Below, piece after piece: positions 2,974 through 30,610 of a stretch of 64,000 nucleotides of DNA; positions within the stretch are counted from its first letter, which is position 1, and every line of letters starts with the position of its first letter. Source of the stretch: Staphylococcus phage SAC. Under the pieces are notes generated by a model. The model did not search any database. It was not told the origin of the DNA and worked only from the letters and a program-made list of their open reading frames with translations. The stretch lies in the sequence record OR234014.1, one strand, 5' to 3'. The translations under genes were made by a program, and so were the position numbers.

Positions 2974-4272
2974 TTACTACCGTTACTTTCGTAATACTTT
3001 AACATTCATTTAAGAATCGGTTTAGACTATATCATAACCCTTATTTTTGGTTAAGGGCTCCTTGCTTTACACTAATAACTTTTTATTTAAATAATTTTCA
3101 ATGTCTTTATATTTTCTTTTACCATAATCTACTTCAAGAAGTAAATAACCGTTATCTTCTGCATAACTTCTCTTTAACTCATCTCTTAATTTTTGTTTTT
3201 TAAATGCCATCTCTCCACCAAAAGATTTTACTGGTTGATAATGTTGTATTCCTTGATACTCTATTAATGTATCATACTCAGGTAAATAAAAGTCATAAGA
3301 AAGTGACTTATTGTAAATTAAATCATCAAACTTTTTCTGTATTTCATATTTAATATTATTATTAATCAAATATTCTTCTACAATCTTTTCTCCAATAGAC
3401 ATTTTACATTTAGGACACATGTCTCTCTCCATAAGATGAGAAGCTCTTATTTCCCATGTTAAACCACATTTATGTCTAACTAAAACTTTAGATTTAGAAT
3501 TAATATACTCTGATAGAACTTCATAATCATTACCGTATTTTTTCTTAACTTCATCTAAAAATTGTTGATGGGTTCTTCTTTGTTTTAAATTATGTTCTTT
3601 CATTCTACAATGAAAACATCTGCTTTTCCTTGATATAAAATCATTAGGTTTGACTTCCCATTCTTTTCCACATACATTATGAATTAACTTTACTTTATTA
3701 GTGACTCCTGTATACTCACCAATTAAAGAATACTCATCACCGACTAAATCATGAAGTTCTTTTTTAAATTGCTTTGTAGTTTTAGATTTCCTACCTTTTC
3801 TTTTATTATTACAGGCAGGACATCTGTTACCATCTAAAAAAGATTTAGGCTTTACTAAGTATTCATTATTCCCACAAGTCTCAGAATTATGCCTCATAAG
3901 TATTTTTGTTTTATTATTTACATATTCTCCTAAAACTTCATATTCATTCGATACTCTATCGTATACTTTTTTCTTAAATTCTTCTGTAGTTATTTTAATT
4001 GCCATTTTAACACCCCCCCTTTCTTTATACATTTTTTTTATTAAAAGTTATTAGTTTTTATCTAGTTCTCACTATATCCATTTATATAGTTACCTAGGAA
4101 TTTAGTCGTTCGGCATTTACTATAATTTAATTATACCATATAATGTTATCTTGTAAATAATTAAATTATAGATTTAGCACAGGATTGCTTTATGCTTTTT
4201 ATAGCACTTAAGGTTTCCCTGTTTAACAAGGTTATTCGATATATATTACTATATAAAGGGGCTATACCATTA
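2974..4272 (-). mobile_element. Group I intron A (~1.3 kb) in terL with an intact homing-endonuclease ORF in a peripheral loop
   Basis: RC contains IA-type R element AACGACUAAAUU (about 4085-4100) and S element AUAUAGUCUAAAC (about 3020-3035). 3' region is homologous to introns B and C. Begins with in-frame UAA right after exon 3. Boundaries +/-10 nt. Confidence 0.7.
3067..4032 (-). CDS. Intron-encoded homing endonuclease: three ~50-aa zinc-ribbon (CxxC) repeats plus a C-terminal Vsr/DUF559-like PD-(D/E)xK nuclease domain
   Basis: Repeats KVYDRVSNEYEVLGEYVNNKTKILMRH / LHDLVGDEYSLIGEYTGVTNKVKLIHN / VKKKYGNDYEVLSEYINSKSKVLVRHK; C-terminus ...YDFYLPEYDTLIEYQGIQHY matches the DUF559 'DF..P....IE.DG.QH' signature. 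Confidence 0.65.
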   Translation of the reverse strand: MYKERGGVKMAIKITTEEFKKKVYDRVSNEYEVLGEYVNNKTKILMRHNSETCGNNEYLVKPKSFLDGNRCPACNNKRKGRKSKTTKQFKKELHDLVGDEYSLIGEYTGVTNKVKLIHNVCGKEWEVKPNDFISRKSRCFHCRMKEHNLKQRRTHQQFLDEVKKKYGNDYEVLSEYINSKSKVLVRHKCGLTWEIRASHLMERDMCPKCKMSIGEKIVEEYLINNNIKYEIQKKFDDLIYNKSLSYDFYLPEYDTLIEYQGIQHYQPVKSFGGEMAFKKQKLRDELKRSYAEDNGYLLLEVDYGKRKYKDIENYLNKKLLV

Positions 4273-6152: not shown

Positions 6153-6168
6153 TCATATACACCTTTCT

Positions 6169-6582
6169 TTAGAATGTATTTGAGTTCTCTTCGTTCATAA
6201 CCTTTTCTTTATCAATAATCATAGCAGTAATATCATCAGCAGATAGTTGAGATAACTTCTCTAAATCTACTTCTTTCTCACCTTTACTATTCTCATTTGT
6301 TATTTCATCAAAGAGCTCTTGTTGTGGTCTTGATAATTGCGGTATAGCACCGCCACCATCAGAACCATCTGTAATTAAGTTTTGCATTTGTTGGAAGATA
6401 ACAAACACTTTATACAAATCATTAGGGTCTTTTACTTCTATTTCCCCTCTGTCAATCTTTTTATTAAAGTCATACATAAGTTTAGTAATACCTGACATAA
6501 ATCCATCAGCTATATATTTACGTTTATCTTCGTCTTCAATTTTTTTCTTAGATAACATATCTCTTAAACTTTCAGCGCTCAC
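6169..6582 (-). CDS. Hypothetical acidic protein (137 aa) directly upstream of terL
   Basis: ORF in operon orientation; position would fit a small terminase subunit, but no motif support. Confidence 0.5.
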   Translation of the reverse strand: MSAESLRDMLSKKKIEDEDKRKYIADGFMSGITKLMYDFNKKIDRGEIEVKDPNDLYKVFVIFQQMQNLITDGSDGGGAIPQLSRPQQELFDEITNENSKGEKEVDLEKLSQLSADDITAMIIDKEKVMNEENSNTF

Positions 6583-6869
6583 TCTATCAATTCACCTACT
6601 TTCTTTAAATTCTTGTAACAGTTATTAATATCTGCGCACATGTCAAAATATAAGTACTTAGAGTACTGTAAATGAAAATGATTAACTTTAGCTATAGCTT
6701 TACCTTTAGTATAATTCATCCCTGAAAGAGATTGACCACATAAACAACACACTCTACTAGGACTTGCAATACGTTTATCTCCTTTTTTTGTTAAGGAAAC
6801 AGCAGTAGCATTATCTTTCAGCTCTTTACGTTGTTCTTTAATGTCCTTCTTCGTTTTCATTGACAGCAT
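6579..6869 (-). CDS. Hypothetical Cys-rich small protein (96 aa)
   Basis: CCLCGQ...C...C pattern; overlapping start/stop with neighbours. Confidence 0.45.
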   Translation of the reverse strand: MLSMKTKKDIKEQRKELKDNATAVSLTKKGDKRIASPSRVCCLCGQSLSGMNYTKGKAIAKVNHFHLQYSKYLYFDMCADINNCYKNLKKVGELIE

Positions 6870-10065: not shown

Positions 10066-10204
10066 ATATATAAGCTCATAAAGAGCTATAATTTCATTTT
10101 GCATAATAAACATTCTTCTCCTTATTTTTATTTGTCGAAACTAGGTCTTTTATTACGTTTTTACCCTAGTATAAAAAAACTATAAAACGTAACACATTTT
10201 TTAA

Positions 10205-10233
10205 TTGACAAATGAATGATAATATGTTATACT
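10205..10233 (+). promoter_or_regulatory. Promoter TTGACA-17-TATACT, start site about 10241
   Basis: Consensus hexamers; the transcript would begin at the left arm of the 27-bp inverted repeat. Confidence 0.55.
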
Positions 10234-10240
10234 TTAAATG

Positions 10241-10806
10241 TAGTATAATTAAACATACATACATAATGGCTGATTTAAACAGGGTGGTACCTGTAAGGCG
10301 TAAGATTGTCGAACGAATTAAAACTTATCGGTATACGTCGGTAAGGTAATTCGTCAATAGTAATGTTTATTACAATCGGAATGCTTAGCAGTAATGTATT
10401 AGGTTTATAAAGTATAGTATCCGATGGGCTTAATTTTTGTAGGGGGTTTTGGTGGTATCCTTTACAAATACACCTTAACAAGTACATGCAGTTGGAGCAT
10501 TGAAAAATGTTTGATAACATACGATACTAGTACGAGTAGCATAAACCTGCAAAATAATAATTGGTAAAAATATAAAGATGCCGTTAAAATTCTTCATACC
10601 ATGTGAAAGTTACTAATTAATATGTTAGTATCACATTACACTATTAAACGGACTCAACCCTATGGTTGTACTGCTTTAGTAGGTTACGTGAGATGGACTT
10701 AGGTTAGCTACCTAATAGAGTCAAGCGTAGTGATTAACTTAACAATAGGTCTAGTATGTTACTTACCAGTGAGACGGTTTATGTATGTATGTTTAATTAT
10801 ACTATA
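10241..10806 (+). ncRNA. Candidate large structured noncoding RNA / inverted-repeat-bounded element (~565 nt) immediately upstream of the lysis cassette
   Basis: No credible ORF; G+C visibly higher than flanks; 10241-10266 (tagtataattaaacatacatacataa) is the exact reverse complement of 10780-10806; own promoter; abuts the RBS of the first lysis-cassette ORF. Confidence 0.45.
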
Positions 10807-14479: not shown

Positions 14480-14668
14480 ATGTTTAAGAAATTGTTCGTT
14501 ATTTTAGTTGATGGTTTTGAAGTTAATGTTATTGCAGATGACTATATCGAAGCAGAAGAACATTGTTATAAGTTTTTTGATTTCTCTACTATAAAATTAC
14601 AAGACTACAAAGAGATTTATACAAGTGAGATGTTCCCTTGCTTTGTAGAAGGGCATAAATATGCATAA
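14480..14668 (+). CDS. Hypothetical protein (62 aa)
   Basis: SD AAAGGGG; overlaps the rnh start. Confidence 0.5.
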   Translation: MFKKLFVILVDGFEVNVIADDYIEAEEHCYKFFDFSTIKLQDYKEIYTSEMFPCFVEGHKYA

Positions 14669-15086
14669 GACTGCATTAATATATACAGATGGTAGCTCAT
14701 CTTATAATAAAGGTCTTGTTGGAGCAGGGGCTATTATTTTAGATAAAAATGAGAACATTGTAAAAGAAATCAGTAAACCTATTGAAAATAGTAGTTTAAT
14801 TAAGTATAATAATGTTGCAGGTGAAATACTAGCTTGTTGTTATGGTATTGAAGAGTCTATAAAACTAGGTTATAAGCAGGCTATTATTCATGTAGATTAT
14901 ATAGGACTTATTCAATGGTATGAAGGTTCGTAGAAAACTAAAAACAATTTAAGTAAAACATATATTAATATGCTAAGGGAATACTCAAAGTTTATAGATA
15001 TAAATTTTATAAAAGTAAAGGCTCATGATAATAACAAATGGAATGAATATGTAGATGCATTAGCAAAAAAAGCAATTGGAATATAA
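14661..15086 (+). pseudogene. rnh: Ribonuclease H (RNase HI family) interrupted by an in-frame TAG at 14931-14933; the uninterrupted length would be 141 aa
   Basis: IYTDGSS, GAGAIIL, GEILA, HVDY upstream of the stop; KVKAHDNNKWNEYVDALAKKA (the RNase H C-terminal helix with the last catalytic Asp) in the same frame downstream. Confidence 0.65.
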
Positions 15087-27863: not shown

Positions 27864-28229
27864 ATGATGACAGAAGACAATTTATATTTATTTAAAGCAC
27901 ACGTGGACAAAGTAGTGGATGGGGATACTATACATGTAACTATTGACCACGGAATGAGAACATACTCTGAGCAAAGAATAAGATTACTAGGTGTCGACAC
28001 ACCAGAAAAGAAACAAAATAATTACCAAGAAGCTAAGGAATTTACAACAACTATGTTAGAAGGAAAAGATGTTTTAATTCAAACATACAAAGATGATTCT
28101 TTTGGTAGATATTTAGCTAAAGTGTTCTACAAAGAAAATAAAGAGTATAAAAATATTAGTGAAGAATTAATTAAAAAAGGATTACTAAAAGAAAAAAGTA
28201 AATGGAATAAAGAACTTGACAAACAATAA
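27864..28229 (+). CDS. Staphylococcal (micrococcal) nuclease family thermonuclease homologue (121 aa)
   Basis: VVDGDTIHVT...RIRLLGVDTPEK matches the SNase catalytic motifs (DGDT ... R.IG.DAPE). Confidence 0.75.
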   Translation: MMTEDNLYLFKAHVDKVVDGDTIHVTIDHGMRTYSEQRIRLLGVDTPEKKQNNYQEAKEFTTTMLEGKDVLIQTYKDDSFGRYLAKVFYKENKEYKNISEELIKKGLLKEKSKWNKELDKQ

Positions 28230-28243
28230 AATATATGCTATAT
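28215..28243 (+). promoter_or_regulatory. Promoter TTGACA-17-TATATT embedded in the 3' end of the nuclease gene
   Basis: Consensus hexamers; would start a transcript at about 28250. Confidence 0.5.
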
Positions 28244-28249
28244 TATTAT

Positions 28250-28510
28250 AGTAGTAGTTAACTAACGCCTCTTAACAATGCGAAACACAGTTAGCATTTT
28301 TTAACTTTATAATGAGAGTAACAGCCTAACTATATGGGTACTGTAAAATCATTATATTCTACCTATCTACCAAGCGTAGAAAAGGTCTACGGTAACGTTA
28401 TGACTCTATTTAGCGTTACTAGCAATCCTGAGTAATGGTATTGGCTAGTTGTAGCTACCTAGTCAAGGGGTTCGAGTCCCCTCTCAGGATTTTTTCCACA
28501 AGATACCTAC
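28250..28510 (+). ncRNA. Candidate ~260-nt ncRNA ending in a tRNA-like acceptor/T-arm minihelix
   Basis: Promoter-to-terminator unit with no ORF; relatively GC-rich; 3' part tcctgag...aggggTTCGAGTcccct-ctcagga-t has a perfect T-arm (GGTTCGAGTCC) and a 7-bp acceptor-like helix, but too few nucleotides for D and anticodon arms. Confidence 0.4.
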
Positions 28511-28511
28511 T

Positions 28512-28548
28512 AAAATATCTTACACCTACTTATTTTTAAAGTAGGTGT
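28512..28548 (+). terminator. Rho-independent terminator
   Basis: cacctactt-attttta-aagtaggtg plus TTTTTTT. Confidence 0.75.
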
Positions 28549-28555
28549 TTTTTTA

Positions 28556-28584
28556 TTGACTTCTATTTACTTATGTGTTATATT
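28556..28584 (+). promoter_or_regulatory. Promoter TTGACT-17-TATATT
   Basis: Consensus hexamers upstream of the MazG-like gene. Confidence 0.55.
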
Positions 28585-28617
28585 TACTATATACTAAAAA
28601 AAAAGGAATGATTATTA

Positions 28618-29403
28618 ATGACTAAAAAAATTAAAAATATTGAAATTGTTTTTGAAAACTTAGATAGTGCGGTATTAGAACCAGAAAATGTAGAGTTGAT
28701 ACTAGAAGGTATTAGTGAAGAAAAAACTATGATATATGGAAATAGTGAAGTAGATACAAGTAAATCAGCAAAAAAAGTTTCTATTGAGGTAAGTGGTATG
28801 AAGGATGAATACTTTGAAGAGTTTCATGGTTTCTTAGATGAGCCCTACAACATGACATTATATGATAGATTAAGTGGCAAAGATATTGTTTGTGTTTGTT
28901 TGAATTATGAGGATGGTACAGACGATACTGTATATGTACCTTATCCTGAGTATGGGCAGTATAATTATATGCAGAGAAATAAGTACGAAAAAGAAATAGA
29001 CACTTTATTTATTACAATAGAGGATAGAGAACAAGAAGAACATGTACCAAATGATGAAAAACCTAACTTTAATGAAGGTGAAACAGAAGACCGCACGCTA
29101 GATGGTTTAGTTAGTCAAGTAGAGGAATGGAGTAAAGATAAAGGATTGGACAATAACAATCCTGATAGACAAGCCCTTAAATTCTACGAAGAAGCAGGTG
29201 AAGTAGCATCGGCATTATCACGTGGTAACCTAGAAGCTCTTAAAGATGGTATTGGGGACACTGTAGTTACTTTAATTATTTTAGCTCAGCAACACGACAT
29301 GTCATTACAAGAGTGTTTAGAGTTTGCTTACGATGAAATTAAAGGTCGTAAAGGAAAAACAGTTAATGGTACCTTTATTAAAGAGGAAGATTTAAATGAG
29401 TGA
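28618..29403 (+). CDS. Protein with a C-terminal MazG-like nucleoside-triphosphate pyrophosphohydrolase domain (261 aa)
   Basis: ALKFYEEAGEVASA...DGIGDTVVTLIILA is the EE..E/D metal-binding helix pair of MazG/HisE-like NTP-PPases. Confidence 0.5.
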   Translation: MTKKIKNIEIVFENLDSAVLEPENVELILEGISEEKTMIYGNSEVDTSKSAKKVSIEVSGMKDEYFEEFHGFLDEPYNMTLYDRLSGKDIVCVCLNYEDGTDDTVYVPYPEYGQYNYMQRNKYEKEIDTLFITIEDREQEEHVPNDEKPNFNEGETEDRTLDGLVSQVEEWSKDKGLDNNNPDRQALKFYEEAGEVASALSRGNLEALKDGIGDTVVTLIILAQQHDMSLQECLEFAYDEIKGRKGKTVNGTFIKEEDLNE

Positions 29404-30049: not shown

Positions 30050-30610
30050 ATGGCAAACTTATTACCACATTTTTACAACACAGAAACAAATAAATGGGAA
30101 GAACTATATACAAAACCTATTGCTAGAGAAGTATTTAATATCATGAAAGAAGATTATTTAGCTCACAAAGGTGAAATAGGCTATTACATTGCTAAGTACA
30201 AAGATGGAGACACAAGTATTGAGCAACCTAATGTTGTTGTTTTTTATGATGTTAACGATTATGAAACAATGACTTTAAATAAAGAGGAAATGACAAGACT
30301 ATTAAATGATTATATAGATAATAATTTACAAGGAAAGTTTAAACCCTTTTCTCTTACTAAATTCTTACAAAATTTAGAAGACCTTAATTACGCTTTACCA
30401 AAACAAGAAAAATTTCATGTAGATACAATCCAGTCGGATAAAAGAAAATTTTCATTTCCTGATACAAATGCAATTAACACAAACCCTGATATCTTAGATG
30501 CCCTTACGGCTACAGATAATCATGTATATATGGAAGTAAAATATTTATATAATGGTCATCCTATTGATGATAAAAAATTAATAAAAGGAAACCAAGATTT
30601 AAAAAATTAA
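30050..30610 (+). CDS. Hypothetical protein (186 aa)
   Basis: SD AAAGGATAAC; terminator downstream. Confidence 0.55.
   Translation: MANLLPHFYNTETNKWEELYTKPIAREVFNIMKEDYLAHKGEIGYYIAKYKDGDTSIEQPNVVVFYDVNDYETMTLNKEEMTRLLNDYIDNNLQGKFKPFSLTKFLQNLEDLNYALPKQEKFHVDTIQSDKRKFSFPDTNAINTNPDILDALTATDNHVYMEVKYLYNGHPIDDKKLIKGNQDLKN

Follow-up and report, generated by a model that had tools for sequence, protein, structure and literature searches.

Several phages carry, in or beside their tRNA clusters, non-coding RNAs (ncRNAs) of unknown or regulatory function that use tRNA-like ends for their maturation, such as the species 1 and 2 RNAs of T4, the C4 RNA of P1 and P7 and the M3 RNA of phi80. MALAT1/mascRNA, MEN-beta and Arabidopsis GUT15 illustrate a proposed logic in which a tRNA mimic within an ncRNA recruits tRNA-processing enzymes (RNase P and RNase Z) to set the ends of the RNA. 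In staphylococcal phages of the genus Kayvirus, the p33/gt001 unit combines a promoter, tRNA-Met and lncRNA1 (530–630 nt, located after tRNA-Met), and three RNA-seq studies place lncRNA1 among the two phage transcripts of highest abundance (Kornienko 2020, Finstrlova 2022, PMC11598898). Here we analyze a 64,000-nt stretch of DNA from Staphylococcus phage SAC (sequence record OR234014.1; hereafter the window), which contains a promoter-to-terminator unit orthologous to the head of this Kayvirus unit and encodes an RNA built from four hairpins (P1–P4) and a tRNA-like element (TLE). The ncRNA is undescribed, and we found no published description of it in the literature searched. To our knowledge, the RNAs of T4, P1/P7 and phi80, which belong to other hosts and are not in Rfam, have no sequence kinship with the unit and no counterpart of P1–P4.

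A non-coding transcription unit of Staphylococcus phages

The unit occupies window positions 28216–28555 on the + strand, between genes for a nuclease and a MazG-like protein. The 361 nt around it match Staphylococcus phage StAP1 (KX532239; Silviavirus, Twortvirinae) at 100% identity, and values given below for StAP1 are those of the window sequence. That the unit is an independent gene for a structured ncRNA of ~300 nt, which is real, transcribed and selected, is well supported. An original prediction had placed a consensus promoter and a strong terminator at the two ends of this segment, and both are present. The sigma-70-type promoter (28216–28244, + strand) consists of TTGACA, a 17-nt spacer and an extended −10 element (TG-n-TATATT), matches the consensus at 11 of 12 positions in addition to the TG, and has the top score in a 2-kb scan, with a predicted transcription start at ~28250–28252. 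The intrinsic terminator (28522–28555, + strand) has a 10-bp stem (28522–28548), a 7-nt loop and a U7 run. The unit thus has the layout of an intrinsic-terminator-bounded small RNA (sRNA) gene, with a same-strand promoter, a rho-independent terminator and no conserved open reading frame (ORF) between them, in agreement with the self-contained non-coding transcription unit that had been proposed. Its comparatively high GC content was likewise recovered, with a maximum of 0.385 (28300–28499) vs 0.22–0.30 in the flanks, and the whole RNA folds with a z-score of −3.6.

The description of the segment as free of ORFs was correct for conserved ORFs but not literally, as two small ORFs exist at 28334–28435 and 28435–28539 (33 and 34 aa). 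‘Hypothetical protein’ coding-sequence annotations overlap the non-coding unit in many GenBank records, and if several of these annotations were right the unit would encode one or two peptides of this size, a reading that we find barely credible. The ATG at 28334 reads ATA in phages S25-4 and YCP, which removes the start codon, and a 1-nt indel near 28466 shifts the frame of the second ORF between StAP1 and phage K, where that frame would run through tRNA-Met. By our own reading, no Shine-Dalgarno-like sequence lies 5′ of either ATG, and the substitutions track RNA pairing rather than codon positions.

Sequence related to the unit was found in 248 phage records, all from Staphylococcus Twortvirinae, and the ncRNA is common to Silviavirus, Kayvirus, Twortvirus and unclassified relatives. 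A plasmid collection gave no match, a metagenome scan with the TLE core returned nothing, and, apart from two chance matches within a coding region, pattern scans of IMG/VR hit no genomes but Kayvirus- or Twort-like ones; an IMG/VR scan for a syntenic protein also returned nothing. When StAP1 was compared with the first 50 kb of phage K, the unit showed 88.7% identity over 284 nt, and all other aligned pieces of at least 100 nt were 66–78% identical (mean 71.8%). It is therefore the best-conserved stretch of at least 100 nt in this comparison, which is not what an ordinary spacer without conservation would look like. Between K and Twort, the TLE (91% identity) and P2 (90%) are more alike than tRNA-Met (85%) and the downstream RNA (56%); in the flanking nuclease gene, StAP1 and Twort share 69% identity. 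Twort lacks P1, P3 and P4 and retains P2, a short linker and the TLE. This mosaic, in which only P2 and the TLE were kept, speaks for selection acting on both modules and against a recent block transfer.

The genomic context of the unit differs between genera. In phage K it lies between gp033 and tRNA-Met, with the TLE 6–7 nt upstream of tRNA-Met, and Twort has the same order and spacing, so that the suspected link to the tRNA region of Twort-like phages was well founded. The spacers within the tRNA-Trp/Phe/Asp cluster of phage K measure 6 nt, like the spacing between the TLE and tRNA-Met, and the TLE thus occupies a tandem tRNA slot. Synteny extends further, as K gp031 matches window positions 30050–30381, and together with the identity given above and the shared promoter it establishes orthology with the leader of the Kayvirus tRNA-Met/lncRNA1 unit: the promoter, P1–P4 and the TLE are orthologous, whereas StAP1 lacks tRNA-Met and ~500 nt of lncRNA1. 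The orthologous promoter appears in two RNA-seq listings, as p33 at 14691(−) in vB_SauM-515A1 (PMC7698491 Table S2) and as promoter 16 at 14555(−), assigned gt001, in phage K (PMC9241854 Table S2A). In S25-4 and Golestan-105-M (locus pieces 1501–1600), tRNA-Met is cleanly missing and lncRNA1 starts 6–8 nt after the TLE; Golestan-105-M carries a tRNA-Thr ~390 nt further downstream.

In Silviavirus (StAP1, Romulus and Stau2, and by sequence EW20, EW41 and MRSA32), tRNA-Met and ~500 nt of lncRNA1 are gone, and the unit is kept with its own terminator. What remains of lncRNA1 in StAP1 is a U-rich tail with a small hairpin (28493–28521, + strand), where the 31 nt at 28491–28521 are 90% identical to nt 434–464 of phage K lncRNA1. 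By our own reading, the StAP1 terminator also resembles the Kayvirus lncRNA1 terminator t33 (ACACCTA...TAGGTGTTTTTTT; PMC7698491 Table S3). No tRNA was found in the three Silviavirus loci scanned, and the 64-kb window is without any tRNA gene, whereas Kayvirus relatives have four. The Silviavirus phage VL10 also has no tRNA by tRNAscan-SE (PMC11035597), although the presence of the TLE in VL10 is not confirmed.

This distribution speaks to the idea that the unit is a cis-acting leader, which would control the transcription, processing or stability of tRNA-Met and lncRNA1 as an attenuator, a riboswitch-like element or a folding chaperone. In Kayvirus and Twort the unit does stand between a promoter and tRNA-Met/lncRNA1, which ranks among the most abundant phage transcripts, and a T-run (28490–28495) comes after the StAP1 TLE, as the original prediction had noted. 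We nevertheless hold a cis-acting role to be very unlikely, as Silviaviruses keep the unit and its own terminator without tRNA-Met and nearly all of lncRNA1, the T-run is not conserved (AUUUCU in K, ACUGUU in Twort), and no riboswitch or T-box matched at E ≤ 10.

Two side observations concern the long RNAs of these phages. The 3′ domain and terminator of lncRNA1 score 43.4 bits in phage K (locus piece 3319–3455) and 41.1 bits in Golestan-105-M (piece 2220–2334) against the Rfam DUF3800-I model, which has a gathering score of 44.2; this DUF3800-I-like domain is lost in StAP1. Elsewhere in the window, positions 10196–10806 (+ strand) hold an orthologue of Kayvirus lncRNA2, the most abundant transcript of phage K. 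It shares 66–70% identity with K, carries a TTGACA promoter of its own and is closed by a long terminal helix of ~25 bp (10241–10267 / 10779–10806). This orthologue has no Rfam match, and the three tRNAs that adjoin lncRNA2 in K are absent here.

Structure and identity of the tRNA-like element

The TLE spans 68 nt (28424–28491, + strand, with U28492 at the discriminator position) and comprises an acceptor helix, a long bulged arm and a T-arm. The acceptor arms, AATCCTGAG at 28424–28432 and CTCAGGATT at 28483–28491, lie 50 nt apart and are 100% complementary, forming a 7-bp GC-rich core (UCCUGAG/CUCAGGA) with one or two additional weak A-U pairs (7–9 bp in all). The ‘UA’ that follows the 5′ acceptor strand takes the position of tRNA nucleotides 8–9. 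The T-arm, AGGGG-TTCGAGT-CCCCT (28466–28482), directly adjoins the 3′ acceptor strand and has the canonical loop UUCGAGU, so the perfect T-arm stacked on an acceptor-like helix that had been described from this sequence is present as stated. The T-loop consensus GGTTCRANTCC, matched by GGTTCGAGTCC at 28469–28479, occurs once in the 64 kb vs 0.05 occurrences expected. Between the 5′ acceptor strand and the T-arm we counted 33 nt, correcting an earlier figure of ~31. Here the place of the D and anticodon arms is occupied by the long bulged arm (~28435–28465), which has an inner stem (UGGCUA/UAGCUA) and a GUUG tetraloop of the GNNG type. That this ‘anticodon-side’ arm ends in a tetraloop goes beyond the earlier description, and the TLE therefore has nothing to decode. 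The whole element is thus an acceptor/T-arm minihelix of ~12 stacked layers joined to a tetraloop-capped arm, and by itself it folds with z-scores of −3.1 to −3.2 in three phages.

We aligned 11 distinct TLE sequences, and the alignment shows compensatory change in both helices of the minihelix. In the acceptor, two pairs are changed on both sides, with one G-C pair becoming A-U in Twort and the outermost A-U pair becoming U-A, and in the T-stem one pair varies between G-C, G-U and A-U. The inner arm hardly varies. Of the three alternative folds compared for it, the two better ones share the UGGCUA/UAGCUA stem and the GNNG tetraloop and keep 95–97% of the cells paired, and in the first of these the columns of the arm that vary are all either unpaired or changed to a wobble. 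A third fold, with 6 bp and a 10-nt loop, was rejected because one phage disrupts it. As the base of the arm hardly varies either, its pairing stays ambiguous among these folds. Overall, 53 of 73 alignment columns are invariant, and the arm and junctions are conserved in sequence beyond the needs of base pairing.

Several lines of evidence set the TLE apart from tRNAs, as the original prediction had held. ARAGORN in default mode found no tRNA or transfer-messenger RNA (tmRNA) in the whole 64-kb window, and its -ps and tmRNA modes were also negative, so that no canonical cloverleaf was produced by software in either the default or the -ps setting. The metazoan-mitochondrial mode (a D-arm-less ‘D-loop mtRNA’ with an aberrant anticodon loop) and relaxed scoring at ps70 (a 4-nt anticodon) gave only forced aberrant folds, which we rejected. 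The Rfam tRNA model returned nothing even at E ≤ 10 on the 600 nt around the unit (28100–28700), where its gathering score is 29 bits and true phage tRNAs score 46–72 bits. A covariance model of the TLE found exactly one copy per genome, and at E ≤ 10 it gave no hit on the tRNA-Met of K or Twort, on the three other phage K tRNA genes or on the tRNA-Thr of Golestan.

Feature by feature, the TLE shares with canonical tRNA (RF00005) the acceptor stacked on the T-arm, the UUCGAGU loop, the UA at positions 8–9, the absence of an encoded CCA and the tandem slot, and its T-loop consensus is contiguous with a 7-bp acceptor stem that is supported by covariation. It differs in having an acceptor that can extend to 8–9 bp, no supported helix at the position of the D-arm (in one fold a single nucleotide separates the acceptor from the long arm), and, in place of a 5-bp anticodon stem with a 7-nt loop (U33, purine 37), a GNNG tetraloop or, in the alternative fold, a 10-nt loop. 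Like the tRNA-like domain of tmRNA, the TLE combines an acceptor and a T-arm without an anticodon arm; the tmRNA domain, in contrast, brings together 5′ and 3′ ends that are far apart and is accompanied by a tag ORF and pseudoknots, and neither ARAGORN nor the Rfam tmRNA model detected such an end-closed domain with a tag reading frame and pseudoknots here. Rfam matches to YrlA, mascRNA and abiF were negligible or not reproduced, and the mascRNA match covers only the T-arm (13.6 bits). No Rfam family reached its gathering score anywhere in the 64-kb window. The defining features of these families were tested and are not present, and the unit lies outside the tRNA, tmRNA, YrlA, mascRNA and abiF families.

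The tRNA slot beside tRNA-Met and the loss of tRNAs from Silviavirus would fit a neutral relic, that is, a decayed tRNA gene with an intergenic spacer that has no function, as would the slightly lower conservation of the unit relative to its flanking genes within Silviavirus. We consider this most improbable, and the decayed tRNA that had been suggested earlier was not supported. No other segment of at least 100 nt is as well conserved between the genera compared, the TLE surpasses the neighboring true tRNA in conservation, its helices are maintained by compensatory changes, the promoter is active (RNA-seq-listed in Kayvirus), and the element is retained in Silviavirus, which is reported to be tRNA-less (PMC11035597).

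The upstream hairpin modules

Upstream of the TLE, the RNA contains conserved hairpin modules over 170 nt, one of them TEG147-like, a feature that the original prediction had missed. RNAalifold on a seven-phage alignment predicts 65 pairs in five domains, P1–P4 and the TLE. Three covariance models found one copy each in StAP1 and phage K, with no second copy of these modules in either. In the minimum-free-energy fold of StAP1 the 5′ end pairs with the 3′ tail, but we rejected this pairing as it is not conserved in Romulus or K by our own reading of the alignment.

The P2 hairpin (28308–28356, + strand) has a basal stem of 8 bp and an upper stem of 7 bp, with an internal loop (GAGUA/AAAA) of the sarcin-ricin/loop-E type between them and a conserved apical loop on top. 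Its closest described counterpart is TEG147, a staphylococcal sRNA borne on a genomic island (PMC3053349), whose internal loop is assigned a sarcin-ricin motif by JAR3D (PMC13085918). Against the Rfam TEG147 model (RF03535), P2 scores 36.1 bits in StAP1, 41.0 in K, 44.5 in Golestan and 33.8 in Twort (E 1e-3 to 2e-6), without reaching the gathering score of 56.1 bits in any of these four phages. P2 and the 60-nt TEG147 agree in length, helices, the AUGAGAGUA...GAAAUCAU internal loop and residues of the apical loop. When P2 was aligned with the chromosomal TEG147 sequences of S. schweitzeri and S. kloosii, 100% of the cells were paired and 7 of 15 pairs were double-changed, a score that none of 500 shuffles reached, whereas slid controls kept 30–45% of the cells paired. 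P2 is thus a structural homologue of TEG147, as a sub-threshold relative. The two differ in their setting, as TEG147 is a stand-alone gene of promoter, hairpin and U-tail and P2 sits inside a longer RNA. A genome-collection scan with the P2/TEG147 pattern found S. schweitzeri and S. kloosii only, with a stand-alone cassette in both. The two chromosomal genes (S. schweitzeri piece 1230–1330, S. kloosii piece 1721–1830) have a conserved TTGAAA-type promoter, and no neighboring protein gene is common to the two loci; in S. schweitzeri, TEG147 lies upstream of ssl-like genes and adjoins a gene for a 220-aa protein without a significant Pfam domain.

The P1 hairpin (28257–28295, + strand) has an outer stem of 7 bp and an inner stem of 3 bp, and both its 12-nt loop (CCUCUUAACAAU) and its 3′ internal loop (AAACAC) are conserved. 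It is 100% paired across the alignment, with double changes in 3 of 10 pairs, and its score was matched by 0 of 500 shuffles. A match of P1 to abiF RNA (RF03085) was rejected, as it was seen in StAP1 only at 18.5 bits (E = 1.5; gathering score 37 bits) and was not reproduced; abiF RNA gave no match at E ≤ 10 in K, Twort, Golestan or the P1-bearing metagenome contig described below, and no Abi_2/AbiF domain was found among the neighbors scanned, namely six ORFs at the phage K locus and, in StAP1, the two flanking ORFs and three more downstream. The P3 hairpin (28361–28386, + strand) has 4 + 5 bp and a CAAGC loop, and the P4 hairpin (28391–28420, + strand) has a 10-bp stem and a 10-nt loop, with its pairs kept in all seven sequences; both were defined by RNAalifold.

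A different ncRNA, ~460 nt long and found in Alsa_4-type phages (Alsa_4 and the IMG/VR contig L019), likewise carries P1 at its 5′ end, and a P3-like segment in the Alsa_4 ncRNA is conserved at 82–85%. This ncRNA (Alsa_4 locus piece 1226–1690; L019 12974–13430) consists of P1, two copies of a ‘GUUGCCUG...GGCUUUGUA’ motif, the P3-like hairpin and a terminator, without P2 or the TLE, and the motif is shared with lncRNA1 of K and Twort. On an unclassified 97.9-kb metagenome contig (ERZ1030373 NODE-9, locus 6166–6640), a stand-alone cassette of promoter, P1 and U-run lies 65 nt after a tmRNA gene (tag DRNQELAVA); this contig encodes an FtsK/SpoIIIE-like protein, and outside P1 a 1.2-kb stretch of it has no match to known phages. 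With P1 and P3 joined to lncRNA1-like modules in Alsa_4 and P1 alone after a tmRNA, the locus behaves as a set of RNA modules that is shuffled among phage lineages.

Possible functions of the RNA

The reading to which we lean, tentatively, is that the RNA is a modular ncRNA that acts in trans, and that its TLE is a handle for tRNA-processing enzymes that punctuates the transcript and caps the hairpin array. Since Silviaviruses keep the unit with nothing downstream of it, the RNA would act in trans. The TLE would have arisen from a tRNA gene in tandem with tRNA-Met that was later put to a new use, having lost the features needed by the ribosome and by aminoacyl-tRNA synthetases. It appears to retain the features recognized by RNase P, RNase Z and the CCA-adding enzyme, namely the coaxial acceptor/T helix of ~12 layers, a T-loop of canonical sequence, a trailer rich in U or A and the absence of an encoded CCA. 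A minihelix of acceptor and T-arm suffices as a substrate for RNase P and for the CCA-adding enzyme, and RNase Z of the Bacillus type acts on precursors that lack CCA. From this substrate-like geometry, we predict that host tRNA-processing enzymes cut the primary transcript at the TLE (‘tRNA punctuation’), and would thereby separate the 5′ array from tRNA-Met in K, from lncRNA1 directly in S25-4 and Golestan, or from a short tail in StAP1. We favor punctuation because the TLE stands in a tRNA slot, encodes no CCA, has a U/A-rich trailer and is the sole separator of array and lncRNA1 in S25-4 and Golestan. Such cutting may leave a compact, exonuclease-resistant 3′ end or free a tRNA-sized RNA of ~68 nt, and the hairpin array and the invariant TLE arm could then act in trans, most likely as putative binding sites for a host or phage protein. 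Specific protein binding is suggested by the P2 loop and by the near-invariance of the TLE arm. The logic would be that of MALAT1/mascRNA, MEN-beta and GUT15, which differ in being eukaryotic and unrelated in sequence, and cleavage at the TLE is only predicted. In a Pfam scan of neighboring phage proteins for a link to CCA addition or RNA repair, only SNase, MazG-like and metallophosphatase domains were found. An S25-4 ORF annotated as ‘nucleotidyltransferase’ matches K gp036 by position, and K gp036 has no Pfam hit.

Several observations weigh against the TLE as a processing handle at the end of a trans-acting array. The acceptor can be extended to 8–9 bp and the fifth pair of the T-stem is unpaired in 8 of 11 sequences, which makes the cleavage geometry uncertain, and the T-loop has no D-loop partner. 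A pure processing role leaves the near-invariant sequence of the inner arm and junctions unexplained, and Alsa_4-type phages combine P1 and P3 with lncRNA1-like modules without a TLE. Between StAP1 and Romulus, the unit (28250–28492) is 94.3% identical vs 97.5–97.8% for the flanking nuclease and MazG-like genes, and this slightly faster drift within Silviavirus, opposite to the pattern between genera, may reflect some relaxed constraint after the loss of the downstream RNAs. In addition, three RNA-seq studies of phage K and 515A1 neither name nor analyze the 250 nt between the promoter and tRNA-Met; as this region was not flagged as abundant, the 5′ hairpin array may be less stable than we propose.

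The sequence constraint on the TLE arm and junctions beyond pairing would be accommodated if the RNA were a decoy or mimic, which we regard as unlikely on balance, although it is the alternative to which we give the most weight. Here the TLE, and possibly P1 and P2, would sequester or redirect a host protein that binds tRNA or sRNA, or the RNA would be a cofactor of a phage protein, and processing by RNase P and RNase Z would be incidental; candidate targets include a tRNA-targeting defense nuclease, a modification enzyme, an RNA chaperone or an RNase. The structural homology of P2 to an sRNA of a staphylococcal genomic island points in this direction, as do the stand-alone P1 cassette on another element, the retention of the unit in Silviavirus without any downstream RNA, and the near-threshold DUF3800-I score of the Kayvirus lncRNA1 3′ domain, as this motif is normally tied to DUF3800 protein genes (PMC5737381). 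Set against these, an element without an anticodon loop cannot stand in for what anticodon nucleases normally attack, TEG147 has no conserved protein gene beside it in the two genomes, and the likeness of P1 to abiF is weak and was not reproduced. A composite version, which we think quite unlikely, is a multivalent tRNA-capped decoy in which the TEG147-like hairpin, the P1 cassette and the tRNA mimic, with the DUF3800-I-like domain added in Kayvirus, would titrate or disarm the proteins that those RNAs normally serve, such as toxins under RNA control or defenses that sense or cleave tRNAs, by analogy to phage pseudo-antitoxin RNAs.

Kayviruses and Silviaviruses are among the leading therapeutic phages against S. 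aureus, and their most transcribed loci are ncRNAs of unknown function. The unit described here is often mis-annotated as a ‘hypothetical protein’, links a phage RNA to the orphan staphylococcal sRNA TEG147, and offers a compact, testable example of a tRNA gene reused as an RNA-processing or binding module. Whether the TLE is a punctuation handle, as we tentatively favor, or a decoy, either role, if true, would clarify how the abundant ncRNAs of these phages are organized.

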